IMG/VR virus record: IMGVR_UViG_3300047408_000067
Location: 1-64,000 of that record
DNA from: a virus
Length of the DNA: 64,000 nt
Direction: 5' to 3' (one strand)
Part shown: positions 24,098 through 47,310 of the stretch, one piece after another
How the letters are laid out: each line of letters begins with the position of its first letter
Numbering within the stretch: the stretch's first letter is position 1
Translations under genes and position numbers: made by a program
Notes under the pieces: generated by a model
What the model was told of the DNA's origin: nothing
What the model saw: the letters and a program-made list of their open reading frames with translations, nothing else
Database searches by the model: none

Positions 24098-24412
24098 CTA
24101 GCCCTGGAGTTTTGGAGGCTGAAACATGAGGTCTGTGAGTATGCCCTCAAAGGCTTCGGAGATGAAGTCATCCAAGTGCTCGAAACCAGTGCTCTGTACG
24201 AGAGCTTGACGCTCATCGTCGTCCCCCATAGCAAAGGTCTGCTTCTCGTCATCGGACAACTGGCTGGCCTGAGTCTCTGCCAGTTTCAGGGACGGAGTTA
24301 GGAAGAACGGCAGCTCTATGCTGCTGAATAGTTTCATTTGGTTATCTGCGGCCAGATTTTCCATCGTCTGGTACAGATGCGGGTACTCCGCCTTGAAGTC
24401 TTCCAGCGTCAT
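24098..24412 (-). CDS. Hypothetical protein
   Basis: 104 aa, AGGAG RBS. Confidence 0.65.
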   Translation of the reverse strand: MTLEDFKAEYPHLYQTMENLAADNQMKLFSSIELPFFLTPSLKLAETQASQLSDDEKQTFAMGDDDERQALVQSTGFEHLDDFISEAFEGILTDLMFQPPKLQG

Positions 24413-29577: not shown

Positions 29578-29835
29578 TTAGTAGTCTCTAGGGATCATGC
29601 CAGGAATCTCTTCAGGGTCCTGAGGGCGTTCACGAGCCAGTTCTATTGTGACGGCCCCATCCTTGCGGATGGTAGCAGCATTGCTCATCCTGGTCCACTT
29701 CGTGGTGAGCTTCGAGTACTCGTCTTCACTCACGTAACCGAATATACGTATCGCTTCGATTATAGACAGTACATCGTTCTCAGCACACGCCTGCTGGACC
29801 ATCTTCAAGAACGGAGCTAAACGGTCTCTAGCCAT
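29578..29835 (-). CDS. Hypothetical protein
   Basis: 85 aa, overlaps end of TS gene. Confidence 0.55.
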   Translation of the reverse strand: MARDRLAPFLKMVQQACAENDVLSIIEAIRIFGYVSEDEYSKLTTKWTRMSNAATIRKDGAVTIELARERPQDPEEIPGMIPRDY

Positions 29836-30983
29836 TTACGTACCTGTTCATAGGGTACCCCGTAGGATGATAGTTCTAGATACGCTGCTTGAATCAGGTT
29901 CGAATACTTCTCTGGGTCTTTGTTCCAACGGTACTGACAGAAGTTACGCATCATCGGTGCCCTGAGCTCTGGATACTCAGGCAGACCTTCGAATGCTCTT
30001 TCGTCGTCGTGTTGCTTGAAGTCACGGTACGCCTGCAACGTTTGTATCACAGCCCGCCAGTACGGACCTATCACGTTCTCCAATCGTTTGAAGTCGTCGT
30101 GGTGGTACTCTATCTGTTCGCGGATGTTGCGCTCTGCCCTGGTTAGCTCAGTGGCAACTAGCGGACCAGTCTTCATCATTGGCGGTGTGGCTTCGAAATA
30201 CTGGTACAAGTCAAACGGCTTGACGTCTTCGCACTCTCGGTACTTTTCCCGATACACGTGGAAGCTGTCCTGCACTATGAACATATGTCCCATTGGCACA
30301 TGCAATGACGCAGCCACCCACTCCTGGACGTGGCTCCACTGCATAACGTTGTACGGTATCCCCCATACCGCATCGTTGCTACGAATGATTTGCATCCAGT
30401 CCAGCCTGCCTTCTCTTATCATGGCATGGGCATAGACGTTGCAAGCTCTGTCATTTGTCTGGGCCTGGTAGTTATCCCAATACGGGTGGCTGAGAACAAT
30501 ACTAGCCTGTCTGCTGTCGGGGTCTGCCACCAGGGTCTGGATTACATGCTCAAGCTGGTCTATTCCAGAATAATCAAGGCTCTTCCTAGCACCGTAGTCA
30601 TAATGGCGCATTCTATCCCCATACGCCGCATTGAAACCAACTACATCACGCTGCCAATGGGGTGTACCTCTTGGGCCATCACCCTGGATGTCGATGATGC
30701 TACTGTTGTAGAAGGCCAGCGCCTGAGCATCATTCTGCCCCGTGATAATATGCATCGCTTCAACAAGGGCAAACGGCAGATTGATCATTCGACCCATGCA
30801 GGTCGTAACACGCTTTCGTGGGTCCAATATAAGAGCCGTGGTGGGGTGTAGTTCCCTCGTCGTCTTACCCCTTGGAGAGGTCTCGGTACCTTTTGCCATG
30901 AGGGTCTTACAGATGTCGGCGTAGTAGTCGTTTACACCCACTGCCGAGAAGTGCCATGCCTGGGGAATATCAGTTATTGTCAT
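29817..30983 (-). CDS. Thymidylate synthase-fold enzyme, probably dUMP hydroxymethylase
   Basis: AYG.R, DQLEHV, DSRQA, catalytic ACN, RSNDAVWGIPYN (Asn = dUMP-type), SFHVY; long C-terminal extension. Confidence 0.85.
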   Translation of the reverse strand: MTITDIPQAWHFSAVGVNDYYADICKTLMAKGTETSPRGKTTRELHPTTALILDPRKRVTTCMGRMINLPFALVEAMHIITGQNDAQALAFYNSSIIDIQGDGPRGTPHWQRDVVGFNAAYGDRMRHYDYGARKSLDYSGIDQLEHVIQTLVADPDSRQASIVLSHPYWDNYQAQTNDRACNVYAHAMIREGRLDWMQIIRSNDAVWGIPYNVMQWSHVQEWVAASLHVPMGHMFIVQDSFHVYREKYRECEDVKPFDLYQYFEATPPMMKTGPLVATELTRAERNIREQIEYHHDDFKRLENVIGPYWRAVIQTLQAYRDFKQHDDERAFEGLPEYPELRAPMMRNFCQYRWNKDPEKYSNLIQAAYLELSSYGVPYEQVRKWLETV

Positions 30984-31800: not shown

Positions 31801-32331
31801 TCAGGATGGTACGAAGCAGGTTCTGCAGGTCCAGGGAAAGAACTTTGAAGACGGCCGTCTTTCCATAAGCCGTGGAGCTCTAAGAAGAGACGCCCTTCCA
31901 TCACAGAGGGGGCACCTAACACGAGGTATACGATTGTGTGCCCAGAATGTTCGCCTATGACGTTCGCTAATCCCTTCAGGGCATCCAAGGGACGCCGGGA
32001 TTCCAAGTTTAGGAGAACGTAGAGTGGACTTGCAATGCACGCAGGTCCACACGTCTTGGTCAGGGGTTTGGGCCATGAGGCCCCATTGGTGATAGCGGCG
32101 CTTTGTGATCCAGGTACGCTTTCTGAGGAACTCATTGTATGCTAGCGTCACTCCTTCCGGTGGAAACTTGATTACACAACCAAGGCATCGCTTGGGCGTT
32201 ACCTTGATACCCTGATAGTACGTGAGTAGGATGAAGCATGGACGGCCACACACCACACACGTTCTGCTCTGGCCGCTTTTGGACAGAGTGTAGTTGCTGT
32301 TCTTCAGGATGTGGTCCTCCACTTCAAACAC
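31801..32331 (-). CDS. Multi-CxxC hypothetical protein
   Basis: Five CxxC pairs. Confidence 0.5.
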   Translation of the reverse strand: MFEVEDHILKNSNYTLSKSGQSRTCVVCGRPCFILLTYYQGIKVTPKRCLGCVIKFPPEGVTLAYNEFLRKRTWITKRRYHQWGLMAQTPDQDVWTCVHCKSTLRSPKLGIPASLGCPEGISERHRRTFWAHNRIPRVRCPLCDGRASLLRAPRLMERRPSSKFFPWTCRTCFVPS

Positions 32332-32893
32332 TAAGACCTCCCCATTGGTCAGCCATCGCTTCGGCTATACCAGGGAAAGTTACGCTTCGTATCTTGCCTC
32401 TGTCAACACTGGTTACCATGTCGAAGAAGCGCGTCTGGAAGCGTTTGGGCACATACTTAGTAGGTCTCAGCAAGGGCAGGTGCCGGAGCCATAAATGTGT
32501 CTTCTTCTGCTCCGTGTCGCCAAACTGCCAGGGATGAATCATCTGGTCTGGCAGTCTAATGCGCGTGCTTATGAGACCCACAGGGTTCTCAATGCAGATA
32601 TAGTATATAGGCGCAGCCATTAGCTCTCGCACAAACGCCAGTGCTTCTCGTGTCTTCGCTGGACGTCCAGGAGCACGGTACCACACTGCGCCTGATATTG
32701 CTAGGTACGTGCAGGGCGGATGCGCTACCATAAGGTCCCAGCCGTCGTGGAGTATATCCCGCACGTCTCCACGGTAGTGGTAGCCAGGGTTGGCTTCACT
32801 ACGCGCCAAATCACAAGAGACAGCAAAATGGCCGCGACGCGCAAACGCATCACGTACACGACCACTAAACTCACAAGCAACCAATACCCGCAC
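32324..32893 (-). CDS. Short DNA cytosine-C5 methyltransferase-like protein
   Basis: VLVACEFSG (motif I variant), DLMVAHPPC (IV), IENPV (VI), QFG...KKT. Confidence 0.8.
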   Translation of the reverse strand: MRVLVACEFSGRVRDAFARRGHFAVSCDLARSEANPGYHYRGDVRDILHDGWDLMVAHPPCTYLAISGAVWYRAPGRPAKTREALAFVRELMAAPIYYICIENPVGLISTRIRLPDQMIHPWQFGDTEQKKTHLWLRHLPLLRPTKYVPKRFQTRFFDMVTSVDRGKIRSVTFPGIAEAMADQWGGLSV

Positions 32894-32901
32894 ACCTACC
32901 C

Positions 32902-32931
32902 ACTATAGCCGCCTAGACTACTCCCCTGCAA
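32902..32931 (-). promoter_or_regulatory. Class-A promoter TTGCAG-N18-TATAGT
   Basis: Directly upstream of MTase GTG. Confidence 0.65.
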
Positions 32932-32965
32932 TCTAGCTTTGAGTAGGTTTTGAGCAGTCCGTGAG

Positions 32966-33526
32966 CTAGGTGCCGCCACCCCGCCCTGAAGCAACGCGCA
33001 TTTCTGCCATCCGCCACATGCTCTCTCGATCCAGGGCATTGACGTACATCTGGAAGTCTTTGGTTAGGGCGTCAAGTGCTTCTTCCAAACGGATAAGGTT
33101 GTCTAACTCTCGCTCCAAGTTGGCAATGCGCTTGCTCGCCTGCACCTTACCCCAGAGTGCATCCACGTAGACTTTGCTGCTACGCTCGGGGGCAAATATG
33201 CGGAAGAGGCGCTTTTTGGATCTGTCTAATATACGCTCTTGCGCTTTCTTCTCACCCCTAGTTATCCCGAGCAATGCGTTCACTCGTGCAAATTGTGCTG
33301 CCCAATACGACTGTAGCGCACGTAGCTCACGCGGCTGAATCATTGTGATGTCGCTGGGAAATGCGTTGTCCTCAGTTATCTCGGGCATCTGCGCCGGAAA
33401 CGGTATGCTCAAGCGCGCCAGAGTCTCAAGTAACTCGGTGCGCGGTACAACCAGTTCCAGGCTGCGGATCATACGTGGGGTCAGCGGGGCTACCGCCGCG
33501 AGGTTAGTATGGTCTTTAGTCGGCAT
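32966..33526 (-). CDS. Helical/coiled-coil hypothetical protein
   Basis: 186 aa in recombination block; UvsY-like role is only a guess. Confidence 0.6.
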   Translation of the reverse strand: MPTKDHTNLAAVAPLTPRMIRSLELVVPRTELLETLARLSIPFPAQMPEITEDNAFPSDITMIQPRELRALQSYWAAQFARVNALLGITRGEKKAQERILDRSKKRLFRIFAPERSSKVYVDALWGKVQASKRIANLERELDNLIRLEEALDALTKDFQMYVNALDRESMWRMAEMRVASGRGGGT

Positions 33527-33603
33527 TTATCCACTCCTTGCCGCAGTCTTGCATGGGGCATCTAGCCAGCACCCCATCCGGAAGGTCGCTACCCCTAAAT
33601 GTC

Positions 33604-34092
33604 TCAACGACGCTTCCGTCGTGTGGACAGACCAGTGCTACGACGAACCCACGCCGGTTCGCTATCAGTTGTGCCGTTACGAGCTTCTCCTGGTCTGCCT
33701 GGGTCAACGGTATACTCTTCTCTTGGAAGTGCCCGACTGCGCTTCCTAGCGAGCTTCTCCGCCAGTTGAAGTCGACATACCCTGCAACCGGATAGACCTT
33801 CAAACGTCTTGGGGTTCTGGTGTTTCTTGTAGATACCCTTGAGGTGCCAGCAGGCATGGCAGAGTACTAGATGCCTCTTTCCAATTTGATGGTATTGCGG
33901 TACGTCCTTGTCGCTGCCGTTAGTGTAGTACCACTTGCGTTCCAGGCAGACATTGCAAGTGTAGTTGCTAATCTGGTCGAGTGTTGCGTCTCTAGTGGGG
34001 TAGAATTTTCCAGGATTCTTGGCTTTCCATTTCTCACGCTCTTTGTAAAGCTGGAGCCAATACCTCTTTTGCCACAAAGCTAGGGTAACCAT
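33604..34092 (-). CDS. Zn-finger hypothetical protein
   Basis: CNVC, CHAC, CRVC; class-B promoter at 34103-34124. Confidence 0.55.
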   Translation of the reverse strand: MVTLALWQKRYWLQLYKEREKWKAKNPGKFYPTRDATLDQISNYTCNVCLERKWYYTNGSDKDVPQYHQIGKRHLVLCHACWHLKGIYKKHQNPKTFEGLSGCRVCRLQLAEKLARKRSRALPREEYTVDPGRPGEARNGTTDSEPAWVRRSTGLSTRRKRR

Positions 34093-34122
34093 GTATGCCT
34101 ACATTGTACCCGCTGGGACGGT

Positions 34123-34941
34123 CTAGCCGCCAGCTTGCGTGATACGTAGACAGTTCAGGCTTTGACGGCAATTAGCGAACATACGATCCCCAGGCTGAAC
34201 GTGGCCCTTGGAATCCATAGTGCAGCCGTGCTCTGGCAGCGTACCTTCCTGACGGTGCTTACGCAAGATCTTGTACTGAGCACGTAGCTGTGCGATCAGC
34301 TCTGGGTCCCGATTGATGGGCAGCTCGAAGTACTCTTGCGTATTCTTGTTCTCGAACCAGAGGATCCCTTTGTTGATGTGGAGCGCCTGCATGTAGTTGT
34401 GCAGTTGCCAGCGGTATCCCTGTAGATGCTCTGGTAGCTTGTGCGTTCTCTCCACTTCCTTGAAGGTAGCGTCGTTGGCACCCTTGACATCGATGACGTA
34501 AATTTCCCCACCTATTTCCACCACGTCATCAGGTGTGCCCGCCACATACCACGGAAGATACTCTACAAGCTCCTCTTGCGCGTGTACAGTTAGGTACCCT
34601 GCCCGTTGCATACGCAGGAATATTGTGTGCCATCTAAGATGTCGCCAGTGGCCGTCGTCAAATAGACTGTTGGTACGTGGGTTCTCGTCTATCTTCCCTG
34701 GCATACCATTGATAGCAAGCATCTGCTCGCGTAGGCAGCGCTTAGACCCAGATGGGCTGAAGTAAGTGCGCTGTCTCGGTAGCTTACGGGCCAGAAGTAG
34801 TTTGGCTGCGAACGCAGCTTCCGTCTTACTAAAGTCACCCAAATCCTGGGTGATCATAAACTGGTCTACTAAGGGCGTCAGTATCTTAGTCGGGTCACGC
34901 CTGTTCTTCAGGTACTTCTTTATGTCAAAGCCAGGAGACAT
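34123..34941 (-). CDS. Cas4-like PD-(D/E)XK exonuclease
   Basis: FSPSGSKRCLR, GTPD, IDVKG, QLHNYM, C-terminal Cys cluster. Confidence 0.8.
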   Translation of the reverse strand: MSPGFDIKKYLKNRRDPTKILTPLVDQFMITQDLGDFSKTEAAFAAKLLLARKLPRQRTYFSPSGSKRCLREQMLAINGMPGKIDENPRTNSLFDDGHWRHLRWHTIFLRMQRAGYLTVHAQEELVEYLPWYVAGTPDDVVEIGGEIYVIDVKGANDATFKEVERTHKLPEHLQGYRWQLHNYMQALHINKGILWFENKNTQEYFELPINRDPELIAQLRAQYKILRKHRQEGTLPEHGCTMDSKGHVQPGDRMFANCRQSLNCLRITQAGG

Positions 34942-35353
34942 CTCTACACTGCCTGCAAGAGTCCCTGTTGCACCCGTCAGTTTTGACAGGGAAACCCTTC
35001 TTTCTTAGGAACATACTGTCACATTTGCTCAACAGGTGCGGGCTTGGGACCAAGATGATACGCTGCTCCGTCTTGGTGTCCTTGGTTTTGAACCACACCT
35101 TGCGCTTCGTCAGAAACATCAGGCGGTAGTAGCTCTCGTACATCTCGTGGATCCAGGTGCTGCGCTCCCCCACTGGCATGTTCTTGGGCAGTATATATAC
35201 CCACTTCAGGGTTTGAATGCTCGTGGGATCTCCCTGTATTGGAAACGCTCTCGCTTGCATAGCAGTCCTGACATATGATGATCTGAGGCAGTGTGCAGCC
35301 AGACGGTCCCCGCCACATGACACACGTCGCTCTTGGGTAGACAATAACCTCAC
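34925..35353 (-). CDS. Hypothetical protein
   Basis: ORF abutting nuclease; start uncertain. Confidence 0.45.
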   Translation of the reverse strand: MRLLSTQERRVSCGGDRLAAHCLRSSYVRTAMQARAFPIQGDPTSIQTLKWVYILPKNMPVGERSTWIHEMYESYYRLMFLTKRKVWFKTKDTKTEQRIILVPSPHLLSKCDSMFLRKKGFPVKTDGCNRDSCRQCRDVSWL

Positions 35354-35395
35354 ACTCTATACAGCGTAGATTATAGTGTCTGTGGTAACCTGCCA

Positions 35396-35686
35396 CTACC
35401 CTACCAGTGTACCACGGCGAGCGTTCTTTATGCGCGCTTGAATCGCACCAGTGTAGATCACGAACTTCTCAAACTGATCTTCCAGGTAGGCCAGTTCTTG
35501 AATCAGTTCGTCACGGGTGGGATGTTGGAAACCCTGCATACGTGAGCTTTCGATGTCGTCCTGACACATGACCACAAACTGTTTGAGAGCGTCGTAGCAT
35601 CCCTGGAGAGACCCGTGGGAGGTCCCTGGCAAGATGGAAATATTGCACGACGGACAGACCAAGGGCGCAGTATCATGATCATTCAT
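35396..35686 (-). CDS. Hypothetical protein
   Basis: MNDHDTAPLVCPSC...; ATGA overlap. Confidence 0.55.
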   Translation of the reverse strand: MNDHDTAPLVCPSCNISILPGTSHGSLQGCYDALKQFVVMCQDDIESSRMQGFQHPTRDELIQELAYLEDQFEKFVIYTGAIQARIKNARRGTLVG

Positions 35687-36024
35687 GAGATGGCCAGATT
35701 TTGGCGATGGACCATTTCGGCTGGCAGGACCACCAGGTCTATAGGAGAACCCTCTATTTGGTGAAAGGTAATCTGTATACATGGTGCCAGACCTTCTTTG
35801 GAAGCTGCACGTTGAAGCAGTTTCCAGTCTGCCACGCGAATGCTAAATGATAGGCGTTCGGTCTCCTTGTTGTCCGTTAGTAGCTCGTCGTCCTTGACGT
35901 CAAACTTGGCATGCCAGAATCTACCTGATGACGGCTGAGCACGGCCCACTCGTGCTTTCGCCCATGCCTGTTCGTGACGCTTGTTATCCTTCGTGGGCTT
36001 ATCTGCCCACTTAGGACGACTCAT
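35683..36024 (-). CDS. Holliday junction resolvase-like PD-(D/E)XK protein
   Basis: HEQ...PSSG...KFDV...DNKET...SFSI...W. Confidence 0.65.
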   Translation of the reverse strand: MSRPKWADKPTKDNKRHEQAWAKARVGRAQPSSGRFWHAKFDVKDDELLTDNKETERLSFSIRVADWKLLQRAASKEGLAPCIQITFHQIEGSPIDLVVLPAEMVHRQNLAIS

Positions 36025-37717: not shown

Positions 37718-40700
37718 CTACTTCGGTATCGGGTACTTCGCATCTTCGAACACAATGCTGTTCCTGTCAACTTGTCGCTTGCCATACACCAGAACGACTC
37801 GTCCTTTGAACAGATTAGCGCCATGTTGTTCCCACCATTTCGGAAACACCACCACGTCCCAGGTACCCAACCCGTCGTATTTGACCTGGACGAAACCCAT
37901 CTTGTAACCATTCTTCGTAGTGATTTCACGTACCCTATCCACTTGCCCGCCAACCCAACACCATTTATCCTGAGAGCTTGTTAGGGACTTCAGGTTCAAG
38001 GGCCTGCGAACCTTGCGGTCTAGAACAACGCGGTATTGATCTATGGGGTGGCTAGTCACATACGTACCCAAAAGTTCAAGCTCGGTTTGTCCTCGGTCTT
38101 CGTCTCCCTGTGTGCCAATGGTTTCAAAGGCACCTACTCTGCGTAATAGTTCAATGACGCGGACGTTGCATCTTCGTCGTGTTACTGTCCTCCTCAAATG
38201 TTCCTCGGAGGTGAATGGCCTGTTCTCTACTAGCTCAGCGCAGGCTGTAACCCCTACACCCTTTATAGCAGTCAGGCCGTAGCGGATGCCACGTTTACCT
38301 TCCACGACAAATCCTGAACCTGACTTGTTTACGTCGGGTGGAAGGAAGCTAAGTCCAAAGAATAACTTCGCCTCGTCTATGTAGACAGGGTAGTCATCCT
38401 TATTGGCATAGCTCAGCAGGGTACAGAAAAACTGTGCTGGATAGTGTGTCTTGAGCCACGCTGTCTGGTACGCTAGTTTCGCGTATGCTGTCGCGTGGGC
38501 GCGGTTGAAGCCGTACCCTCGGTAGTTCCATATCATGTCCCATATCTTTGTGGCTATTTCTAGGGTGCAACCGTTGTGCAATGCCCCTTGGGCTGCTCCC
38601 TTGGATTTGCCACTGAGCTTGTCGTAGAGTTCGCCCCCATTGAAGAACAGTGGCTTGAGTTCGTCCCATATGTCACCCTTCTTATACTTGATGGCCTCTT
38701 TCAGCTCGTCTACAAGGTGGTGATCGAATCCTCCGATTTGAAGTCCAATCTCCATGACTTGTTCCTGATATAGAACAACCCCCTGCGGTAAGATACGCCT
38801 GAGCCGTTTGTCTGGTAGCCTACGCCTGAGGTCTGTAGTTGCACCATCACGGCCTTCTCTATACTGCTCCACGAACTGGTTAGCACCACCGCGCCCGAGG
38901 GCCATGACAGCAATAAGGTCCTCAAAGCTCTGGAGTTGTAAATCTCGAACAACCTGCCTGGAAGTACCACCTTCAACCTGGAATACTCCCGAGCACGCAC
39001 CTCTATTGAGAGTGGCCCAAACCGCTGGATCCTCGTACTCATACATCTCCGCAAATGGATCTTCCCCTATCAGATCAATGCAGTCTTGTATGACATCCAG
39101 TGTAGTCAGGCTCAGGATATCAAACTTCACCACACCTAGCCGCTTGAGACCGTCCATATCATACTGAGTCACTACAGCCGCTTGACCACGCCCCTGTCCA
39201 CGCCCAACCATCATCGTTGGGACCAGTTTGCGTAGGTCGAACGCTTGGTCTGCAATAACTATGCCAGCAGCATGCTTGCCTTCGCCTGTGATGAGGTCCT
39301 GAGCTGTCGTAGCCCACTCATAAAAGCTAGGGTAACTAACCATAGCCCCCTTTAGTACAGGGTGTAGATGCTCGTCTTGAAGCAGTTCCTTTAGGTCGCC
39401 ACTAGCCTTCAGGTTGACGATGAGTGCTGCATCTGGCAGAGACTTACTTGCCGCAAATTGCTCGTTGCGCGGATACCCCAACGCCCCCAGGATGCGTTGT
39501 ACTGTGCTCCGTGGGCCACCCCTGCCGAACGTACCTACTCGTTGGGATTGGTACGGTGCTTGATTATATCTGCTAAGTAGGTATTTGACGACTTCTTCGA
39601 TCCTGCTGTGCGGGAAATCAACATCGAAGTCCGGGAGGCTTGGGCGCGCCGGATTGAGAGCACGCTCAAACATAAGATCATACCGCACAGGATCCACATC
39701 AACAATGCCCATAAGATAGGCTGCGAGTACCCCCGCCATACTGCCACGGCCAGGGCCGACACGAATCCCACGAGACCTAGCCCAATCAATATAGTCGCGA
39801 ACAATAAGAAACTCTTCTTCGAACGTACTGCCGAAGATGACGCCAAGCTCGTATTGTAGACGAGTCCGGTACGTCTCAATATCCTTTGCCAGCCCTCCAC
39901 GTCTCTCCAGCACTCGCAACCTCTTTTCGCAGATTGCGCGCATATAGTCAGCAGACGATACTTCCGTATTCTCTCTTGGAGCAACTGGGATGTGCCAGCT
40001 TCTTTGCTCCAGTTCTGGGATACTGAGCTGTATATCGTCTGTGTACTCTCGTATAGTGCGCTGGCTAGCTGCCCATACTGCGGGTTGGTCTGCCCAGAGT
40101 GCTCGCATTTCAGACGTTGTTTTGAGATGATATCCTGAGCCATCAAAGTGGAATCTGGTCGAATCCCTCCAAAGGGACATCGTCTGGCATGCCAGCCATA
40201 TGTCGTGTACCGAATGGTGCGATGCTTCAACGTAATGGCTGTCGTTGGTGATGACCAGTGGGAACCCGTACTTGTCGTGCCACCTGATAAGCCTGTTGTT
40301 GACCTTCTCCTGGTCATCGTTAGCCCGCCTGTCGCCAGTGTTCTTCAGGTTATAGTCATGCCGCTGTAGCTCGAGATAGAAGTACGGGAACAGTTCCCTG
40401 AAATACTGAGCATACTGGAGGGCCGTAGCGTTCTGGTTGGCTAGGATTAGCTGCGGTATTGGACCATTGAGACAAGTCGAGCTGGCGATAAGGTGTCGTC
40501 GGTCTTTCCGCGGTATTGCTTCCAGCGTACTATAATCGACACGAGGCTTATAATAGAAGTGGCTAGGATCGTTCGCGGTACTGCTAAGTTCGCACAGTAC
40601 CTCGTACCCTCGTCTGTCACGAGCAAGCAGTACCAGATGGTGCCGCCTAGGACCCTCTTTCTTGCCGGTCTCAGGATCAACTGTTCTGGTACGGTCAGTA

Positions 40701-40921
40701 CAGTCATCGCAAAGATAGAATTCCTGCCCCACAATAGGTCGAACGTCAGCCTTTCGGCACGCCTGGTAAAACTCAGGAACTCCAGACATGCGTCCATGAT
40801 CTGTAATTGCGAGAGCTGACTGCCCATCATCTTTGGCTTTCTGGACCAGATCCGGTATGCGTGATAGCCCGTCTAGCACGCTATACTCTGTGTGGTTGTG
40901 TAGGTGAACGTATTTACTCAT
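37718..40921 (-). CDS. dnaE: DNA polymerase III alpha subunit
   Basis: MSKYVHLHNHTEYSVLDG PHP start, GPGRGS, PDFDVDF, KFDILSL, YGFNRAHA, C-terminal OB fold; start set at 40921. Confidence 0.96.
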   Translation of the reverse strand: MSKYVHLHNHTEYSVLDGLSRIPDLVQKAKDDGQSALAITDHGRMSGVPEFYQACRKADVRPIVGQEFYLCDDCTDRTRTVDPETGKKEGPRRHHLVLLARDRRGYEVLCELSSTANDPSHFYYKPRVDYSTLEAIPRKDRRHLIASSTCLNGPIPQLILANQNATALQYAQYFRELFPYFYLELQRHDYNLKNTGDRRANDDQEKVNNRLIRWHDKYGFPLVITNDSHYVEASHHSVHDIWLACQTMSLWRDSTRFHFDGSGYHLKTTSEMRALWADQPAVWAASQRTIREYTDDIQLSIPELEQRSWHIPVAPRENTEVSSADYMRAICEKRLRVLERRGGLAKDIETYRTRLQYELGVIFGSTFEEEFLIVRDYIDWARSRGIRVGPGRGSMAGVLAAYLMGIVDVDPVRYDLMFERALNPARPSLPDFDVDFPHSRIEEVVKYLLSRYNQAPYQSQRVGTFGRGGPRSTVQRILGALGYPRNEQFAASKSLPDAALIVNLKASGDLKELLQDEHLHPVLKGAMVSYPSFYEWATTAQDLITGEGKHAAGIVIADQAFDLRKLVPTMMVGRGQGRGQAAVVTQYDMDGLKRLGVVKFDILSLTTLDVIQDCIDLIGEDPFAEMYEYEDPAVWATLNRGACSGVFQVEGGTSRQVVRDLQLQSFEDLIAVMALGRGGANQFVEQYREGRDGATTDLRRRLPDKRLRRILPQGVVLYQEQVMEIGLQIGGFDHHLVDELKEAIKYKKGDIWDELKPLFFNGGELYDKLSGKSKGAAQGALHNGCTLEIATKIWDMIWNYRGYGFNRAHATAYAKLAYQTAWLKTHYPAQFFCTLLSYANKDDYPVYIDEAKLFFGLSFLPPDVNKSGSGFVVEGKRGIRYGLTAIKGVGVTACAELVENRPFTSEEHLRRTVTRRRCNVRVIELLRRVGAFETIGTQGDEDRGQTELELLGTYVTSHPIDQYRVVLDRKVRRPLNLKSLTSSQDKWCWVGGQVDRVREITTKNGYKMGFVQVKYDGLGTWDVVVFPKWWEQHGANLFKGRVVLVYGKRQVDRNSIVFEDAKYPIPK

Positions 40922-41306
40922 GGGGCCAAGACGCTGCTTCCTCTTGCGTAGCATCACGAGACGGTGCCTTGGTTGCTCTACTTTGGCTGCCGCCCATAGT
41001 ATATTGTACCTTATCGCCACCTGCGGATGCACACCTGTACGCATGAGGCATCGGGACCTGCTCGTCCAAGAACATCCACGCACTGCACTCCACGCAGGCA
41101 GCAGATGGACGCACTAGATTCTGGTGGCTCACTGACTCAGTACCAATTTGCAGATACTGAAGGCAGTGGTTACACCAGATCTTACCCTTGGGGGCGTCTT
41201 CTCTTGGCTGGAGTATACTTCCTGGGGTGTATCTTTCGTGCAGCAAGTAGCTCCCTGGCTTGTTCATTATCACTGGTAAGAAAGAGTCCTGTTGTGGGAT
41301 CGACAT
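40914..41306 (-). CDS. Zn-binding hypothetical protein
   Basis: CNHC...CVEC; start uncertain. Confidence 0.4.
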   Translation of the reverse strand: MSIPQQDSFLPVIMNKPGSYLLHERYTPGSILQPREDAPKGKIWCNHCLQYLQIGTESVSHQNLVRPSAACVECSAWMFLDEQVPMPHAYRCASAGGDKVQYTMGGSQSRATKAPSRDATQEEAASWPHE

Positions 41307-41382
41307 AGCCCTCTATTCCTCGCGCTTTTAGTTGCTGGTCAACGAACTCGGACGGTAACATCAAGCCATTGGGAGTAGGCAT
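41182..41382 (-). CDS. Hypothetical protein
   Basis: MPTPNGLML...; TGATG coupling. Confidence 0.55.
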   Translation of the reverse strand: MPTPNGLMLPSEFVDQQLKARGIEGYVDPTTGLFLTSDNEQARELLAARKIHPRKYTPAKRRRPQG

Positions 41383-41741
41383 CACCACCCCCATCGCATA
41401 ACGGTAACCCAAGCGTAGGTTCCGTAAGCTTTCTCTACGTTCTCTATGCCCCATGCGTAGCTTGGTGCCCACACATCTACTTGGTACTTGCTGAGATAAC
41501 CAGTGTCTTCACACGTGACTACCCAATCGTCCTCTACGAATTTGAGCTGAGTACCAGCAGGAAAGTAGCTTCCGCAAGCCGCCGCACCGAGATGGGTTTG
41601 GTTGCCCCATCGCATCGTGCCACGGACATTATAGAACGTCAGTCGGACGTGTTCCTGCCACAAGCCTTCGTCATCTGCATGCGCTATAGGCGTGACTGCG
41701 GATAACATGATAGCGAGCAGGGCTGCGCGCAAAACTGCCAT
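41382..41741 (-). CDS. Secreted 3D-domain (MltA-like) cell-wall protein
   Basis: Signal peptide; TFY, PAGT, CEDTG, VDVW. Confidence 0.75.
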   Translation of the reverse strand: MAVLRAALLAIMLSAVTPIAHADDEGLWQEHVRLTFYNVRGTMRWGNQTHLGAAACGSYFPAGTQLKFVEDDWVVTCEDTGYLSKYQVDVWAPSYAWGIENVEKAYGTYAWVTVMRWGW

Positions 41742-41765: not shown

Positions 41766-42692
41766 CTAGGATGCAGGTGTGTACTTACGAGTAGCGGATC
41801 TACTAGGTGTGCCATCCGGATTGGCATGGTATCTGGCACGAGAGTACTTCTGGAACTCACACAGGGAGTGTTCTACGCCGCGCAGGGTCATCTGGTATCC
41901 TGGCCAGACTTGATGCCATTCAACCAGTCTATCAATCCCCTCAATAAAGGTCTCCTGCCTAGCCTGTAGAAACGCGATATAATCTTCCCATTTGATTCCA
42001 GAGTTACGCGCACCCCAGATCCAGAGAATCCCACGCTTACACCCAGGTCCGGCGTTGACCCAATCATTCTCACTAAAGTCCACAAGTCTAGAATAGTTGA
42101 CGTCAATGGCAAGCTCGTACGCCAAGAACCGCCCGAACCCTTGTGTGTCATTGAAGATCTGCCATACCTGTTTCAGCGACTTCGCAGACGTAATAGCCCG
42201 TAGTAGTGCTGGTGTTTGCTTTTGTAGCCTGCCCACTAGCCAGCAGATGTTCCTGATTTTGTCTGGAAAGCCACCAAACTTCACGCCAGTAACAGTAAAG
42301 GCATCCGTAAACACCCGACTGCCGTGATTCTCGTAGGCGTTTAGATATCTGGCTGCCCGCTCCCAATCCCAAGCTCCCCACCGTGTCATCTTGCAGCGCA
42401 ACCACAGGAACCTGAAGGTATCAATGTCGTTGAACAGTCTGTACACCATGATGGCGAACAGCATGTCTTTGTCATCCTGTATCCGCAGTATGTTGCGGAT
42501 GAGGAAGATGGTACCTTTGTCCAGTTCTCTGTAGACGTTGGTGAAGAAGTATTGCTTCAGTACAGGGTCGACAGTCCAAGGGGCTGGCATTTGGAGTTCC
42601 ATGCGTCTGTAGTAGATTGCTTGTCTTTCAACAACAAAGTTCCAGAACGCAGCCATCTTGTCTTGTCGGTAGGCAGGCAGTATGTTGGGCAT
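41766..42692 (-). CDS. 5-hmdU DNA kinase-like (aGPT-Pplase1 helical family)
   Basis: FVVERQAIYYRR...PWTVDPVLKQYFFTNVYRELDKGT, YRLFN, GFGRFLAYE, NAGPG, EHSLCEFQKY. Confidence 0.85.
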   Translation of the reverse strand: MPNILPAYRQDKMAAFWNFVVERQAIYYRRMELQMPAPWTVDPVLKQYFFTNVYRELDKGTIFLIRNILRIQDDKDMLFAIMVYRLFNDIDTFRFLWLRCKMTRWGAWDWERAARYLNAYENHGSRVFTDAFTVTGVKFGGFPDKIRNICWLVGRLQKQTPALLRAITSAKSLKQVWQIFNDTQGFGRFLAYELAIDVNYSRLVDFSENDWVNAGPGCKRGILWIWGARNSGIKWEDYIAFLQARQETFIEGIDRLVEWHQVWPGYQMTLRGVEHSLCEFQKYSRARYHANPDGTPSRSATRKYTPAS

Positions 42693-43711
42693 TAGATGAA
42701 TGCTAGATGGGACTTATCGTCCGCAAGCTCCTCGTTCATGACGTCGTGGTAGACGTGGAATCTGCAGTCATAGAAGTCACATTCTGGAATGATAACTCGC
42801 TGCATGGCTGCGCGGTGTGATTCACTATACCAGAGATCGCGGAATCCATTACCTCCATTTGTGGAGAGTGCGCCAATGGAGATATCCTCAATACGGTCCT
42901 GATAGTAACAGCACACCCACACTGTGCCGAGTGCGTCGATAACAGTGTGTAGCGGGGAAAGCCAACATTGTCCATTCTGATGAGTCTTAGCAATACCACC
43001 GAAGACTCTTCCAGGGTATCTAGCTCCAAGCTCCTGAATGGTATCTTGAATAGCCCGCTTGTCTTCCTCAGGTAGGAGTTCAGGATCGTCGTTGCAATGG
43101 CGCTTCGCCTTGATGCTAACGTAGTCAACTCCGGCATCTAGTATCTCCTCCGTGAGGTATTCGACTGCTGCCACACTGCTGCTACCAAGCAGGATTTTCC
43201 CACCAATCCTACAACTAGAGTTCCTACTATCACGTTCCTGGACAATTCGTCGAACGTTGTCCAGTTGGTTGACAGTATAAACAGAGACCCGAATGTAGCG
43301 GCTTCCAGCATAAGCCAGAACATGAACACAAGCATCTGGGCGGGTTCCGTTCGTGATCATCCCGAATTGGAGATTATTGCTAGCGACGATATCAACAAGA
43401 TCGCGAAACCTAGGGTGAAGAGTAGGTTCTCCACCTCCGGAAAACTCAAGGGACTCGCCGCCCATCTCGCTAAAATCACGAACGAAACTATCAAAGACGC
43501 TGACACCAAGGCTTGCAGGTCGTGCATTCTCAGCGTTAGAGATGCAGCCAAAACAGCGCATATTGCAACTGTACGTAGGATATACGATCGCCATTGTGGG
43601 GGCAACCATCTCATCGCGCTTGAGCTTGACCGCATCTTTGCGAAAGCTGAGTATCTTGGTGCGTAGATCTACTGGTGCGTATTGCGGAATCACCCGAATG
43701 CCTCCAACCAT
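42692..43711 (-). CDS. Radical SAM enzyme with SPASM/twitch domain
   Basis: CNMRCFGC, FSGGGEPTLHP, ITNG, C-terminal C...GTVWVCC...C..C. Confidence 0.9.
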   Translation of the reverse strand: MVGGIRVIPQYAPVDLRTKILSFRKDAVKLKRDEMVAPTMAIVYPTYSCNMRCFGCISNAENARPASLGVSVFDSFVRDFSEMGGESLEFSGGGEPTLHPRFRDLVDIVASNNLQFGMITNGTRPDACVHVLAYAGSRYIRVSVYTVNQLDNVRRIVQERDSRNSSCRIGGKILLGSSSVAAVEYLTEEILDAGVDYVSIKAKRHCNDDPELLPEEDKRAIQDTIQELGARYPGRVFGGIAKTHQNGQCWLSPLHTVIDALGTVWVCCYYQDRIEDISIGALSTNGGNGFRDLWYSESHRAAMQRVIIPECDFYDCRFHVYHDVMNEELADDKSHLAFI

Positions 43712-45153
43712 GCCCTTGCCACGCCGCTAACAAACTTCATCCATCTCCCGTCTTGTGTAGGTTGAGAAGACAAGACTTGCAGCAGGGCTTCGCTACCCAT
43801 AGCCGCAATTTCTGCCTGTGCCTCTTCCTCTAGTTCTTCTTCGTCTTCCTCTGGCTCAACGTCTGCCACTGCTAGTGCGGCGACTGGTATGTTTCGGGAA
43901 GTGAATACCTCTTGACGCTCAACCATTTCGATTTCAGGAATGGGATCATCACAGACGTTATCCCAAAAGCTAGGGCTAACGACACCAGGGTGATGTCCAT
44001 ACTCCAGTCCGTTTTCAAGGTGGTCGAGTATCGTTGCCGCGTGTACCCTGGCATCACTGTACTCCCGCACAAACTCGATTGCTCTGTAGGCTATGCGCCG
44101 TTGAAGGCGTACATCTGCCATCAATTCGTTGAGTCTTTCGGCGATGCCTTGAGAAGAAGGTGGTAGTCCCCACGTAACGTCGACCTGGGACAGCGGACTC
44201 CACCTGTGTTCTTGTACTCTTGTGGAGACGGCAGATACACAGCCATACAGCATGGCTTCGAGCATGACGCAGGACGTCTGGCCGTCGAACCTCTGTCCGC
44301 CAATAGAGCCGCTGAGATCCACGCTAACGTTATGCTGGCGATAAATACCAGGAAGTTCTGCTGGAAGCTGCGCCCCCCAATATTGGTGATCAGCTCGCCC
44401 ACGGCCACGGCGCTGAGCAACGTGGTCAAGACCAATGCCATCTTTCCAACCCGCACCCACCTTGTTCCTGGCATTATGGTACTCGATGCCAGCGTTGTAC
44501 AGATCAACAGGATACTCAATGTTGGGTAGGGCCTTGATGAACGGATAGATACCTTTCCATTTCTTCCATTGCGGCATCCAGCAAATTGCGCCAGTTTTGT
44601 CTGGTAAGCACAAACCCGCCTCTCTGGTATCTAGGGGGGTTGGCAGAAACACGAAGTGTCCGGGCAGCCTCGCCAGGGAGTCGTACTTGGATTGATAGCA
44701 CGTAAACATGTGAAGGCTCACCAAGTCCGACACTTGACGATACCACGGGTAGTAGCTGTCCCACAGGTTGTCGTGAATCATCACCATGATTGGCAGGCCC
44801 GCGTCGGCTGCTTCCTGATACAGCATCATCCACGACATATCACCAGTGTTGGACTTGATATCATGTGGGCATGGCAGCATGAACATGACCACGTCGTAGT
44901 CGCGCAGTAGTTGACGATACTGTCTCCTGGCCTCGTCTCCCTTGTAGGCCAGTTGCCTAGCGGGTAGCCTGTAGTACCTGTGGTTGACCATCGTAGGGGC
45001 GTCTGGACTAAGGCTGCGCACCTTACCTGCCCTGCTAGCCCAATAGTAGTCGAACGTGCAACCGATAGCCTCTAGACCATACTGCAACCCTTCGACTATG
45101 CGGTTTATCCCACCACGCTCTATGATTTCAAAGTCAATTACCAGGAATCTCAT
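43690..45153 (-). CDS. GT-B glycosyltransferase (probably DNA-acting)
   Basis: GGINR N-terminal loop, IHD, WKKWKG, MLEAMLYGC. Confidence 0.75.
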   Translation of the reverse strand: MRFLVIDFEIIERGGINRIVEGLQYGLEAIGCTFDYYWASRAGKVRSLSPDAPTMVNHRYYRLPARQLAYKGDEARRQYRQLLRDYDVVMFMLPCPHDIKSNTGDMSWMMLYQEAADAGLPIMVMIHDNLWDSYYPWYRQVSDLVSLHMFTCYQSKYDSLARLPGHFVFLPTPLDTREAGLCLPDKTGAICWMPQWKKWKGIYPFIKALPNIEYPVDLYNAGIEYHNARNKVGAGWKDGIGLDHVAQRRGRGRADHQYWGAQLPAELPGIYRQHNVSVDLSGSIGGQRFDGQTSCVMLEAMLYGCVSAVSTRVQEHRWSPLSQVDVTWGLPPSSQGIAERLNELMADVRLQRRIAYRAIEFVREYSDARVHAATILDHLENGLEYGHHPGVVSPSFWDNVCDDPIPEIEMVERQEVFTSRNIPVAALAVADVEPEEDEEELEEEAQAEIAAMGSEALLQVLSSQPTQDGRWMKFVSGVARAWLEAFG

Positions 45154-45695
45154 ACGGGTAGTTTATCACCTATTGGGGTCTGGTTCAAGGCGACTTCCTG
45201 CCGTATATCGATGTCCTGAACCTGGTACAGTAGATAGTCAGCAGCGGACTCGAGGCTGTCCAGCACTACAAGACTCATAGCCCGCCATGCCGCATAGTCT
45301 ACGATCCCGCCCGTGAGATCCACAGTGATAACAGGTTTGCCCCAAGCATAAGCAACACCGATTTCGTGAGCAGAGTCAATTGACGTGTATCCTGGGTAGA
45401 TGCAAGATAGCACAAAGTCACTATCGTGGATGAGACGTAGGTTGCGAGGAATGTAGAAGCCAGCTCTGCTGGTAGCCACCCCATCGCGATAAGCATTCGG
45501 GGCACGAGGATGAAGCCACAGTACACTACCAACGAGCCGATCGATATCCGCACGAGGGCGAGTATAATCCGGAGGGACTTTCTGCGCGGCCCATACGGCT
45601 CCAATGGTTTCACGTACCAGATCCCTGTACAGCGTCTCTAACTGGTGTCGCCATCCAACCTGCATAGTGCCCGACGTGTATGGGCTGACTATCAC
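45150..45695 (-). CDS. Nucleoside 2-deoxyribosyltransferase / NMP hydrolase-like
   Basis: YTSG, LIHDSDFV, SAHEIGVAYAWGKPVI. Confidence 0.8.
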   Translation of the reverse strand: MIVSPYTSGTMQVGWRHQLETLYRDLVRETIGAVWAAQKVPPDYTRPRADIDRLVGSVLWLHPRAPNAYRDGVATSRAGFYIPRNLRLIHDSDFVLSCIYPGYTSIDSAHEIGVAYAWGKPVITVDLTGGIVDYAAWRAMSLVVLDSLESAADYLLYQVQDIDIRQEVALNQTPIGDKLPV

Positions 45696-46141
45696 TCCTG
45701 CTTGTCCCTTCTATCGTCATCATCGTCGACGAAATTGAGACCAAACCACGCCAAGCACATCATGGTCCGGATAAGGACGTCGTAAAACGTGCCCGTCAGT
45801 TTGTCCTTATCCCACTTCATGACAGCGCCACTTTCGCTAGCAGAATCAAGACGGTACAGCTTGTCTTTCAGGTCTACCAATGCCGTGATAGGCCCATCTT
45901 TCTGCCACGCGTCTTTGTACTGCTGGTTTTTCTGATACACCAGCGTGTCGTAATCTATCAGCGCCATTGCTAACTGTGAATTGATCTCGGTCAGCCACAG
46001 TTGTGACTCATAGCGCTCGTCCGTCGGGTCTAGCCCAAGGACGTGCTCTGCGAACTGGTCCAGTAGCCACCCTTGCTTGATGTCTACCCGTTGCATGTCT
46101 GCTGGTGTAACGATCTTCACGATTGCCCTCCAGATAAACAA
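45692..46141 (-). CDS. DUF1599 / nucleotide-modification-associated all-alpha protein
   Basis: KNQQYKDAW..DG.....DLKDKLYRL. Confidence 0.65.
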   Translation of the reverse strand: MFIWRAIVKIVTPADMQRVDIKQGWLLDQFAEHVLGLDPTDERYESQLWLTEINSQLAMALIDYDTLVYQKNQQYKDAWQKDGPITALVDLKDKLYRLDSASESGAVMKWDKDKLTGTFYDVLIRTMMCLAWFGLNFVDDDDDRRDKQE

Positions 46142-46200
46142 ACGGGGCAGGTACCGTGCCTACCCACCCCGCTGTTTCCCACCCTATGTGCGGGTCTAGA

Positions 46201-47310
46201 CTACGCTTCCTGCAACGCTGCTACCCTGCGGCGTTCCCGCTTGGGCATAACACGGTGACAGGTCTCGCAGATGCTGTGATGCTGAACAATGTTGCCGCCC
46301 ACCCGCATCAGCCTGCGGACAAGGCTTGGATCCTCGAGCACCCGACTGTAGTTGCTCGCCACGTAGGTCACGTGGTTTGCCAGTTGGTACAGGTTCTCCA
46401 CAGGGTGGTTGACCAGCCTGTTGCGGATCATATCACGAACAGCGGGTGGGATGCCAAAGTCCTGAAGCATGGCAGCCAGCTCTTCGTCCGTATGGGTGCC
46501 GACCGCCACGTCCTTCAACGCCTTGAAGCGGTCCACTTCAGTCTCCACCTTGTTGAGGATGGTGGGTACGTTGGTGGTGATCCACTCCTTGTCGTCGGCC
46601 TCGTCGGCTCGCTTGGTGTAGTGCATGACGTTTTGGGTGCTGGTCATCCCGTTCGTACACACCAGTCGTTCCCAATAGCCAGATAGATCAAGACCGAGAC
46701 CAGTACCACCAGGGGCACTGTATCCGTACGGGCTAACGTACAACTGGACTCCGCTAGCCACGATGTCGTTGACCTTAGCACCCTGATTACCGCCCTCCAG
46801 GCGCTGGTAATCCTTGCCGCCCATGTTGTATTCACTGCCGCCCACCAGGGAGATGTACTGGCGATCTTGCGTTCCCCAGACCTTGTAACCCTTGACGTGC
46901 TTGCGGCCACCCATTGCACGTTCTACGGTGCGCATGTAGTCGAGCGGGTCGCGTACTTCGACCTTCCCGTCAATGATGGCTTGAATCTCACCCTCACGAG
47001 TAAGTGCCTTCAGGTTGCCCTGGCGCTCCCTGAAGCTGTAATCGAGCAGACCCACAACGTGTGCTTGCGCATCGGTGCCCATGTACTTGAGCATGCTGTT
47101 GGTCTGTAGCCCGCTAACGCGGAACAACGTGTCCCAGGCGCTTGCGCCCAGAGGCATTACGTCGTCCTTGTTGCCGAAGCGGTACTGCACCTTGCCGTTG
47201 GTACCGACCTGGAGGCCGTAGCTGTCGTCTGGGGCAAACTGGCGTTCCTCAAGCCCGCTAAAGGGCAGGAGCGTCTGCAGCGCCGTTTCACGATCAACCA
47301 TCTGTGTCAT
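46201..47310 (-). CDS. DUF932-like phage protein
   Basis: ERLVCTNGM motif, NLYQLANHVT. Confidence 0.6.
   Translation of the reverse strand: MTQMVDRETALQTLLPFSGLEERQFAPDDSYGLQVGTNGKVQYRFGNKDDVMPLGASAWDTLFRVSGLQTNSMLKYMGTDAQAHVVGLLDYSFRERQGNLKALTREGEIQAIIDGKVEVRDPLDYMRTVERAMGGRKHVKGYKVWGTQDRQYISLVGGSEYNMGGKDYQRLEGGNQGAKVNDIVASGVQLYVSPYGYSAPGGTGLGLDLSGYWERLVCTNGMTSTQNVMHYTKRADEADDKEWITTNVPTILNKVETEVDRFKALKDVAVGTHTDEELAAMLQDFGIPPAVRDMIRNRLVNHPVENLYQLANHVTYVASNYSRVLEDPSLVRRLMRVGGNIVQHHSICETCHRVMPKRERRRVAALQEA

Follow-up and report, generated by a model that had tools for sequence, protein, structure and literature searches.

A five-gene phage cassette predicted to direct a sugar-type hypermodification of thymidine

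The IMG/VR virus record IMGVR_UViG_3300047408_000067 is a 90,615-bp phage genome with direct terminal repeats and a completeness estimate of 100%. The window analysed here is its first 64 kb (64,000 nucleotides), and the searches described as genome-wide were performed on the complete genome. Within the replication module, five consecutive open reading frames (ORFs) of the minus strand, 45692-46141, 45150-45695, 43690-45153, 42692-43711 and 41766-42692, form a cassette for which a sugar-type hypermodification of thymidine is predicted: 5-hydroxymethyl-2'-deoxyuridine (5-hmdU) in DNA would be glycosylated and the sugar would then be remodelled, a reading that we consider modestly probable. The cassette genes, together with a thymidylate synthase (TS) homologue encoded at a distance from them, are the following:

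45692-46120, minus strand: P0001, divergent DUF1599/Nmad1-like protein of about 142 aa, its start re-read at GTG 46120
45150-45695, minus strand: P0002, protein of the nucleoside 2-deoxyribosyltransferase (NDT) superfamily, 181 aa, with an invariant Glu111
43690-45153, minus strand: P0003, GT-B glycosyltransferase (GT), 487 aa, AF2 model with a pLDDT of 78.8
42692-43711, minus strand: P0004, radical S-adenosylmethionine (SAM) enzyme, 339 aa, whose C-terminal domain is SPASM/twitch-like and which has four invariant auxiliary Cys
41766-42692, minus strand: P0005, clade-1 aGPT-Pplase, 308 aa, with the PF18723 helix-hairpin-helix (HhH) glycosylase-like helical domain
29817-30983, minus strand: TS-superfamily enzyme, 388 aa, matching PF00303 with 77.7 bits

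The ends of successive ORFs overlap by 4, 4, 22 and 1 nt, which fits the translational coupling that an initial annotation had proposed for five genes upstream of dnaE; a 119-aa ORF intervenes before dnaE. The family names given there (DUF1599-like, NDT-like, GT-B, radical SAM/SPASM and aGPT-Pplase1) were borne out by hidden Markov model and structure searches, those of the DUF1599-like and NDT-like proteins mainly through their homologues and that of the SPASM domain at the borderline, as was the presence of a TS homologue of the dUMP type at 29817, which is indicated by the PF00303 match and by a uracil-type Asn. Upstream of the cassette are a replication-initiator-like gene, the genes for a DnaB helicase, a primase and a single-stranded DNA-binding protein, and a 369-aa gene; downstream, the 119-aa ORF is followed by DnaE and RecA. 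This placement inside the replication module supports a role in DNA modification. The stretch recurs in soil metagenomes: among the runs listed, 20, belonging to 15 studies, contain it in whole or in part, and four of these are possible sources of the record itself. A blastn search of the cassette against 50,697 phage records gave no match, and no cultured phage among them is similar at the nucleotide level.

In P0003 the catalytic core spans about residues 1-390; beyond it come a tail that is acidic and disordered and, at the C-terminus, a helix. Its sequence had no match in Pfam, PHROG or the PDB sequences, and only 28 homologues were found among 5.8 billion proteins, one of which carries PF00534 (Glycos_transf_1). 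The model has a GT-B fold, with two Rossmann-like domains and the active site in the cleft between them. Foldseek returned at least 500 matches at E<=0.001, all of those listed being glycosyltransferases or related sugar-transfer enzymes; the best solved one was the T4 DNA alpha-glucosyltransferase (AGT; 1.3e-11). With VIA, scores against GT structures were Z 21-28 across residues 1-388; five AGT entries rank first (Z 27.4-28.1, 349-357 residues aligned) and are followed by TarM (Z 26.7) and PimA (Z 26.1). The top 30 matches in BFVD include a "DNA alpha-GT" of cyanophage S-TIM5 and two glycosyltransferases of Bacillus phage SP-15. The C-terminal nucleotide-sugar motif of glycosyltransferases is E-x7-E; in P0003 Glu299 is invariant and, seven residues earlier, the equally invariant Gln292 stands where the motif has Glu. 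No relative was detected by tblastn in the 50,697 phage records, hence none in the cultured phages among them, and a metagenome scan for distant relatives did not reach beyond the same lineage, with identities of at least 54%. A 5-hydroxymethylpyrimidine in DNA is predicted as the acceptor of P0003, indirectly, from the fold match and from the gene neighbourhood in three lineages.

P0004 matches Radical_SAM (PF04055) with 47.4 bits (cut-off 29.5) and, at the borderline, SPASM with 21.6 bits (cut-off 21.5). The Cys of its CX3CX2C motif (C49, C53 and C56) are invariant in 59 sequences, and so are four C-terminal ones (C249, C267, C311 and C316). SPASM domains with two auxiliary clusters have a seven-cysteine motif; the four C-terminal Cys of P0004 would fit a single auxiliary cluster. 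When the 59-sequence profile was searched against the PDB, DesII (1.4e-17) and BlsE (1.1e-15) ranked ahead of PqqE, anSME and SkfB (about 1e-12), and the comparison of the AF2 model (pLDDT 91.7) with VIA gave the same leaders, with DesII at Z 23.8 (326 residues aligned), BlsE at 22.7 and PqqE at 20.2. The hexose from which DesII and BlsE abstract a hydrogen is carried by a pyrimidine nucleotide or nucleoside, and the proximity of P0004 to these enzymes is the best available hint that its substrate may be a sugar and not a peptide. Among the phage records, tblastn found P0004 relatives only in two uncultured megaphage records, at 21.8% identity.

The TS homologue is closest, among the structures in the PDB, to the CMP hydroxymethylase MilA (2.4e-17), true thymidylate synthases being matched at 7e-9. 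The catalytic Cys residues of the two enzymes align, and the Asp of MilA is replaced by Asn in the phage enzyme; the same Asn is found in the TS homologues of phages PaMx11 and LuckyBarnes and of L018, a 104-kb uncultured IMG/VR contig (72% complete). We take this position to be the one that reads the base, Asn for uracil and Asp for cytosine, as with Asn177 of Escherichia coli TS and Asp179 of the T4 dCMP hydroxymethylase. The nearest relatives in cultured phages are those of the SPO1-like Bacillus phages, SP-10 (annotated as "dUMP hydroxymethylase"), and the M6-like and ViI-like phages. The enzyme is thus most likely a dUMP hydroxymethylase, predicted to supply 5-hydroxymethyl-dUMP.

P0005 belongs to a family that is characteristic of thymidine-hypermodifying phages (PMC5889632, PMC8989533). 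It matches PF18723 (HMUDK_hel) with 229.4 bits (cut-off 25, E 7.2e-68), residues 13-287 aligning with positions 4-275 of the 281 in the profile, and the search of the genome with this profile gave the same result. Clade-1 homologues were detected by tblastn in 455 phage records, including PaMx11-like and ViI-like phages, SP-10 and LuckyBarnes; the identity with those of PaMx11 (gp50), SP-10 and LuckyBarnes is about 30%. In the systems already described, a P-loop protein serves as the 5-hmdU DNA kinase (M6 gp54, ViI gp67 and gp243, PaMx11 gp49, PhiW-14 gp37), the Pplases are distinct from it and have a DNA-glycosylase-like fold, and SP10 gp186 is the only case of a clade-1 Pplase fused to the kinase (PMC8989533, PMC5889632). 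That fusion presumably explains why Pfam names PF18723 a "helical domain" of the kinase. The initial annotation had taken the aGPT-Pplase1-family protein for the kinase itself, which is wrong: the kinase is a P-loop protein of PF18748, whereas P0005 matches PF18723 only and has neither a P-loop domain nor a Walker A motif.

No substitute for the kinase was found. The complete genome had no match at E<=10 to PF18748 or to AAA_33 (PF13671), tblastn and phmmer searches with PaMx11 gp49 and the L018 kinase yielded only noise, and the Walker A motifs of the genome are confined to UvrD-like and DEAD-like helicases and RecA. As a control, the PF18748 search recovered the kinase of L018; it found none in a 98%-complete relative of the phage. 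The top insignificant phmmer match of both kinase queries was a 169-aa ORF (29019-29528, minus strand), which was rejected as a hidden kinase, being highly charged and devoid of a P-loop, with the two queries aligned to different regions. The product of this ORF, located just downstream of the TS homologue, is basic in its N-terminal part, carries a long tail of Asp and Glu, and matches no family.

The amino-acid:DNA transferase is lacking as well, in agreement with the initial annotation, whose statement can be extended from the window to the complete genome: the clade-2 transferase profile (PF18724, ADDT) hits only P0005, with 14.5 bits, below the cut-off of 26.2. In this phage lineage the clade-1 Pplase therefore lacks both proteins that usually accompany it, the kinase and the clade-2 transferase. 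Since both are absent from the complete genome, a route through phospho-hmdU is unlikely, and the earlier suggestion that phospho-hmdU receives a sugar lacks its enzyme.

As regards the activity of the clade-1 protein, the chemistry of clade 2 offers a comparison. In clade 2 a Cys attacks C6 of a flipped 5-phosphomethyl-uracil, a Glu/Thr pair holds a metal, the phosphate departs and the exocyclic methylene receives the donor (PMC11472151, PMC13458397). An hhalign comparison of six clade-1 sequences with PaMx11 gp46 placed Glu274, His275 and Cys278 of P0005 on Glu243, Thr244 and Cys247, a weak match (E 0.042, probability 1.3%). Cys278 and the Glu, Lys, Tyr and Arg that follow it are invariant in 8/8 clade-1 sequences from three lineages; the Glu located four residues before the Cys is not invariant, being Gln in L018. 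These sequence features lead us to think that clade 1 may be an enzyme of related chemistry and not a passive DNA binder. In phage M6, the Pplase paralogue gp55, which is separate from the clade-2 protein gp51, is dispensable for the formation of N-alpha-glycinylthymidine (PMC8989533).

The conservation of the cassette was evaluated on 20 contigs that remained after duplicates had been dropped, 19 belonging to the phage lineage and the other being L018. Within the lineage, the GT gene is followed by the radical SAM gene and preceded by the NDT-like gene in 16/16 contigs that reach far enough, and the Pplase is present in 12/12, while the GT identity falls to 54%. The cassette is not a chance arrangement, as its order is kept in every related contig that covers it. 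Insertions are found in a sub-lineage of 54-57% identity, at L031:4019-9125, L032:11444-16269 and L034:6410-7904. The inserts of L031 and L032 encode a 1509-aa collagen-repeat protein and an LtfC-like protein of 108 aa, and that of L034 other fibre-like ORFs. The C-terminal part of the 1509-aa protein weakly matches the ORF of the phage at 63.6-64.9 kb (30% over 236 aa); a collagen-repeat ORF of the phage's own lies near 73.7 kb.

Beyond the lineage, L018 shares only 3/131 ORFs with the phage, namely the GT (32% identity), the Pplase and the TS homologue. These three are found in one region (L018:8722-15667), in the order GT, HNH/AP2 homing-endonuclease-like protein, SAM methyltransferase, PIG-L-like deacetylase (a weak assignment), low-molecular-weight phosphatase, P-loop 5-hydroxymethyluracil DNA kinase (5-HMUDK), Pplase1 and TS; the intervening genes include tailoring enzymes of the sugar type, and no clade-2 transferase was detected in the contig as available, which is 72% complete. 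A third lineage is represented by the cultured Brevibacterium phage LuckyBarnes (NC_047851.1), with an operon (31993-36008) for a 517-aa TS homologue, two glycosyltransferases and a Pplase1 (230 bits). Both glycosyltransferases are TET-associated (PF20691, TAGT), and the complete 50.8-kb genome has no match to PF18748 or PF18724. The genome announcement suggested that a "dCMP-hydroxymethylase" and the two glycosyltransferases modify DNA (PMC6588365); despite this name, the TS homologue carries the uracil-type Asn. A motif resemblance raised the possibility of a DUF1599 domain fused to this TS homologue, which was rejected (0.3 bits by hmmsearch, no Pfam match). LuckyBarnes is therefore alike in having a genome devoid of kinase and ADDT, with a clade-1 Pplase, glycosyltransferases of the DNA type and a uracil-type TS homologue, while it differs in that its glycosyltransferases belong to PF20691 and not to GT-B, and in that its operon has no radical SAM, NDT or DUF1599 gene. 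The combination of Pplase1, GT and TS recurs in the three lineages, and clade-1 Pplases occur alongside glycosyltransferases of the DNA type that have two different folds, both in genomes with a kinase and in genomes lacking one.

The two remaining products of the cassette are small and divergent. The start of P0001 is more likely at GTG 46120 than at TTG 46141, because the former is preceded by GGAGGG and coincides with the point where the homologues begin, and the latter is inside a 13-pair hairpin. P0001 itself has no Pfam match, DUF1599 included; however, DUF1599 (PF07659, nucleotide modification associated domain 1) is matched by 7/14 sequences of the alignment of P0001 with its 13 homologues (best E 2.7e-10), so that the label "DUF1599-like" is fair. 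Its Atlas score for DUF1599 is 0.88, which is a lead only. Neither the PDB sequence search with P0001 nor that with the DUF1599 profile gave anything usable, and a match to Asl1650 (E 0.019) was discarded as due to chance. P0002 scores 21.8 bits against PF05014, below the cut-off of 28.8; the domain is carried by 18/31 of its homologues, and the Atlas features reach 0.93 for NDT clusters. The catalytic residue of NDT enzymes is a conserved Glu. In the weak matches of the P0002 profile to PDB structures (YtoQ 0.0044, NDT 0.02), the invariant Glu111 aligns with their conserved Glu, that of two NDT structures included, and the provisional assignment of this below-threshold protein to the NDT family has support.

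Two further features flank the cassette:

41382-41741, minus strand: 119-aa ORF between the cassette and dnaE, with no Pfam or PHROG match
46141-46173, minus strand: terminator-like hairpin, with a 13-pair stem and a T-rich tail, between the 369-aa gene and the cassette

By tblastn, the 119-aa ORF is found at the same position in seven related contigs (L011-L015 and L022), at 45-84% identity, and it has no match in the 54-57%-identity sub-lineage. The hairpins of the region are no more numerous than in shuffled sequences, thus the one at 46141-46173 is a remark on position only. The 369-aa protein (46201-47310, minus strand), directly upstream, is encoded by the best-conserved gene of the neighbourhood, at 88-92% identity in close relatives; its sole match is PHROG 1362, of unknown function (2.4e-5), and the PDB sequence search gave no usable one. 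The phage is replicated by a DnaE-type polymerase (PHP, Pol III alpha; 37718-41083, minus strand). At 32324-32893 (minus strand) a 189-aa protein matches PHROG 757 ("DNA methyltransferase", 2e-62), with no Pfam match at E<=0.01, and may provide a second DNA-modifying activity of the phage. A 144-aa protein (24409-24843, minus strand) matches YAcAr, a YspA/cpYpsA-related SLOG family, with 29.8 bits, barely over the cut-off; SLOG domains bind nucleotides.

The pathway that we infer for these genes, from the DNA acceptor and the identity of the sugar to the order of the steps and every catalytic role, would proceed as follows. The TS-like enzyme would convert dUMP to 5-hydroxymethyl-dUMP, which host or other kinases would phosphorylate and which the DnaE replisome of the phage would insert instead of T. 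The GT-B enzyme, as a retaining GT4-like transferase, would then move a sugar from a host nucleoside diphosphate (NDP)-sugar to the 5-hydroxymethyl group on DNA, and the DesII/BlsE-like radical SAM enzyme would take a hydrogen from the hexose, leading for example to its oxidation, deamination, decarboxylation or epimerisation. The clade-1 Pplase may act on the same 5-substituted uracil through the Cys that clade 2 uses at C6; with no phosphate to leave, it could bring about an exchange or a rearrangement at the C5-methylene, or else keep the base flipped out while its partners act. Nucleotides would be the substrates of the NDT-like and DUF1599 proteins. Of the interpretation originally put forward, the sugar-type module is retained, supported by a GT nearest to a DNA glucosyltransferase fold and a radical SAM enzyme nearest to sugar-acting ones, while the kinase label and the phospho-hmdU branch are abandoned; the shaping of the nucleotide pool that it ascribed to the NDT and DUF1599 proteins is conjectural.

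Several observations weigh against this pathway. The lead of AGT over unrelated GT4 enzymes is only about 1-1.4 Z (28.1 compared with 26.7 for the next), nearly a tie that is suggestive, not decisive, and does not establish a DNA acceptor for P0003, a protein that has no Pfam match to fall back on. The alignment of Cys278 with the catalytic Cys of clade 2 rests on the weak hhalign match (E 0.042, probability 1.3%), and in the speculative Pplase step the lack of a kinase leaves the known chemistry of the superfamily with no leaving group. A dUTPase and a dCMP deaminase were searched for and not found, no means of excluding T from DNA was found, and no gene for NDP-sugar synthesis was seen in the cassette. 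Tail-fibre-like genes stand between the radical SAM gene and the Pplase in three related contigs, showing that the block is not inviolable and leaving a protein target of the GT and the radical SAM enzyme conceivable. Finally, the genome assembles readily from ordinary soil metagenomes, while the bulky T modifications of Carin-5 hindered sequencing (PMC12686479).

The same evidence can be arranged in other ways. The Pplase could be the transferase, with the GT and the radical SAM enzyme building or tailoring a small sugar-derived donor in solution: its Cys would attack C6 of 5-hmdU, expel the C7 oxygen with no prior phosphorylation and link the donor, through O or C, to the C5-methylene, as a sugar counterpart of the amino-acid:DNA transferases. 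This would account for the invariance of Cys278 and its alignment with Cys247 of PaMx11 gp46 in a common E-x-x-x-C motif, and for the persistence of Pplase1 beside glycosyltransferases in kinase-less genomes, where it suggests that the protein has real work to do; a role for Pplase1 is also left free by the dispensability of M6 gp55 for N-alpha-glycinylthymidine (PMC8989533). However, hydroxide leaves poorly, L018 has Gln in place of the metal-binding Glu, a kinase accompanies Pplase1 in L018 and in all the characterised phages, the nearest fold of the GT is that of a DNA-acting enzyme, and the hhalign statistics are weak; the proposal is improbable. Modification ahead of replication is distinctly improbable too. 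In that case the TS-like hydroxymethylase, the NDT-like protein as N-glycosidase or transferase, the GT and the radical SAM enzyme would act on free nucleotides or bases, and the product would be incorporated into DNA, as an SP-15-like triphosphate, or be a small molecule, made by steps resembling the early ones of mildiomycin or blasticidin S synthesis. The dihydroxypentyl-uracil of SP-15 is made as a nucleoside triphosphate and is labelled from ribose, according to reference titles in PMC5977210. MilA is the best solved relative of the TS homologue, BlsE the second-best relative of the radical SAM enzyme, and the cassette contains an NDT-superfamily protein with the conserved Glu. A tentative parallel may be drawn with the mildiomycin and blasticidin pathways, whose early steps involve the hydroxymethylase MilA, the hydrolase MilB, a sugar coupling and a radical SAM decarboxylase. 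The Asn of the TS homologue is nevertheless of the uracil type, unlike the residue of MilA; moreover, P0003 resembles GT4 enzymes and AGT and not the enzymes that couple a sugar to a base, an HhH DNA-binding Pplase would have no role, and the LuckyBarnes glycosyltransferases belong to PF20691, a family of DNA-base glycosyltransferases.

The fibre genes raise a different question, whether the link with DNA is limited to the TS homologue and the Pplase, while the GT and the radical SAM enzyme would modify a phage protein, such as a collagen-like fibre, or a component of the host envelope. In L031 and L032 the genes for the collagen-repeat fibre and the LtfC-like protein come directly after the GT and radical SAM genes, in L034 other fibre-like genes do, and the phage has its own collagen-repeat ORF near 73.7 kb; in addition, SPASM radical SAM enzymes commonly act on peptides, and PqqE, SkfB, SuiB and anSME are among the matches of P0004. 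Yet 9/12 contigs that reach the Pplase have no intervening fibre gene, the cassette is part of the early replication module and distant from the structural genes, the GT homologue of L018 sits with T-modification genes, and DesII and BlsE outrank the peptide-modifying enzymes in both the profile and the structure tests. A protein or envelope target is very unlikely, and glycosylation of 5-hmdU in DNA, followed by remodelling of the sugar, is the reading that we retain.

A bolder version can be formulated, which we hold to be doubtful: clade-1 aGPT-Pplases in general would be kinase-independent Cys enzymes that open the C5-methylene of 5-hydroxymethyluracil in DNA, and here, with the GT and the radical SAM enzyme, would build a sugar-derived side chain of T, possibly C-linked or deoxygenated. 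If true, it would imply a new DNA base and the first genetic route to the SP-15-type "linker plus sugar" bases.

Hypermodified thymidines shield phage DNA from restriction enzymes, and their pathways are a source of DNA-labelling enzymes. To our knowledge, every hypermodified-T pathway solved so far proceeds by a phosphate added by a P-loop kinase and then displaced by an amine or hydroxyl donor. A second branch is suggested by the cassette together with the LuckyBarnes operon and the cluster of L018: a sugar would be attached and, in the phage described here, then remodelled through radical chemistry. If the prediction holds, the orphan clade-1 Pplase family, with its 455 phage records matching by tblastn, would gain its first function, a radical SAM enzyme acting on a glycan on DNA would come to light, and genetic handles would be available on the sugar-bearing T modifications of SP-15, YerA41 and Carin-5. 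As LuckyBarnes is cultured, the core idea is directly testable.

In the literature searched, no characterised pathway combines a clade-1 Pplase, a GT and a radical SAM enzyme, as the initial annotation had supposed; the supplements and figures of PMC8989533, with their metavirome clusters, are outside this scope and may hold GT-bearing ones. The pairing of GT and TS is as such not new, since many GT-bearing viral contigs carry a TS homologue (bioRxiv 2023.12.21.572611). With phages M6, ViI, PaMx11, PhiW-14, SP10 and SH-Ab 15599 the phage shares a TS homologue of the dUMP-hydroxymethylase type, a clade-1 aGPT-Pplase and a neighbourhood of replication genes. Those phages, however, have a P-loop 5-HMUDK and an amino-acid or diamine:DNA transferase, and a GT-B enzyme is found here instead of both. 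A radical SAM tailoring enzyme is also present in M6 (PMC8989533); it is the spore-photoproduct-lyase-like gp53 (PMC8989533), whereas P0004 is DesII/BlsE-like and not of the gp53 type, given that its tblastn search found only the two uncultured megaphage records. DesII, a TDP-sugar deaminase/dehydrogenase, and BlsE, a cytosylglucuronate decarboxylase, are the nearest solved relatives of P0004 and have the CX3CX2C motif in common with it; P0004 is only 17-18% identical to them, has the four invariant C-terminal Cys, and its predicted substrate is a sugar on DNA, theirs being on a free nucleotide.

In SP-15, YerA41 and Carin-5, T bases that bear a sugar are known from their chemistry, with no enzymes assigned to them, so that a gene-by-gene comparison with the cassette is not available. 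The common points are the sugar-bearing T modification, predicted for the phage, and the TS homologue (PMC12686479, PMC13697223); two SP-15 glycosyltransferases are also among the structural matches of P0003. In those phages T is replaced by a hypermodified base with a linker, a phosphate and a sugar, and they encode a PolA-UDG polymerase and genes for NDP-sugar synthesis, whereas this phage has DnaE and none of the latter in its cassette. The predicted reaction, an O-glycosylation of a 5-hydroxymethylpyrimidine in DNA, is of the type known from T4 and from base J, and P0003 is a GT-B enzyme whose best solved match is T4 AGT; on the other hand, P0003 is only 12-14% identical to AGT, nearly tied with GT4 enzymes, and the predicted base is a hydroxymethyl-uracil and not the cytosine of the glucosylated 5-hydroxymethylcytosine of T4. 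Base J, the glucosyl-5-hydroxymethyluracil of kinetoplastids, is formed by a GT-A transferase. A partner of the radical SAM or Pplase type is present in neither the T4 AGT nor the base J system; the phage cassette has both.

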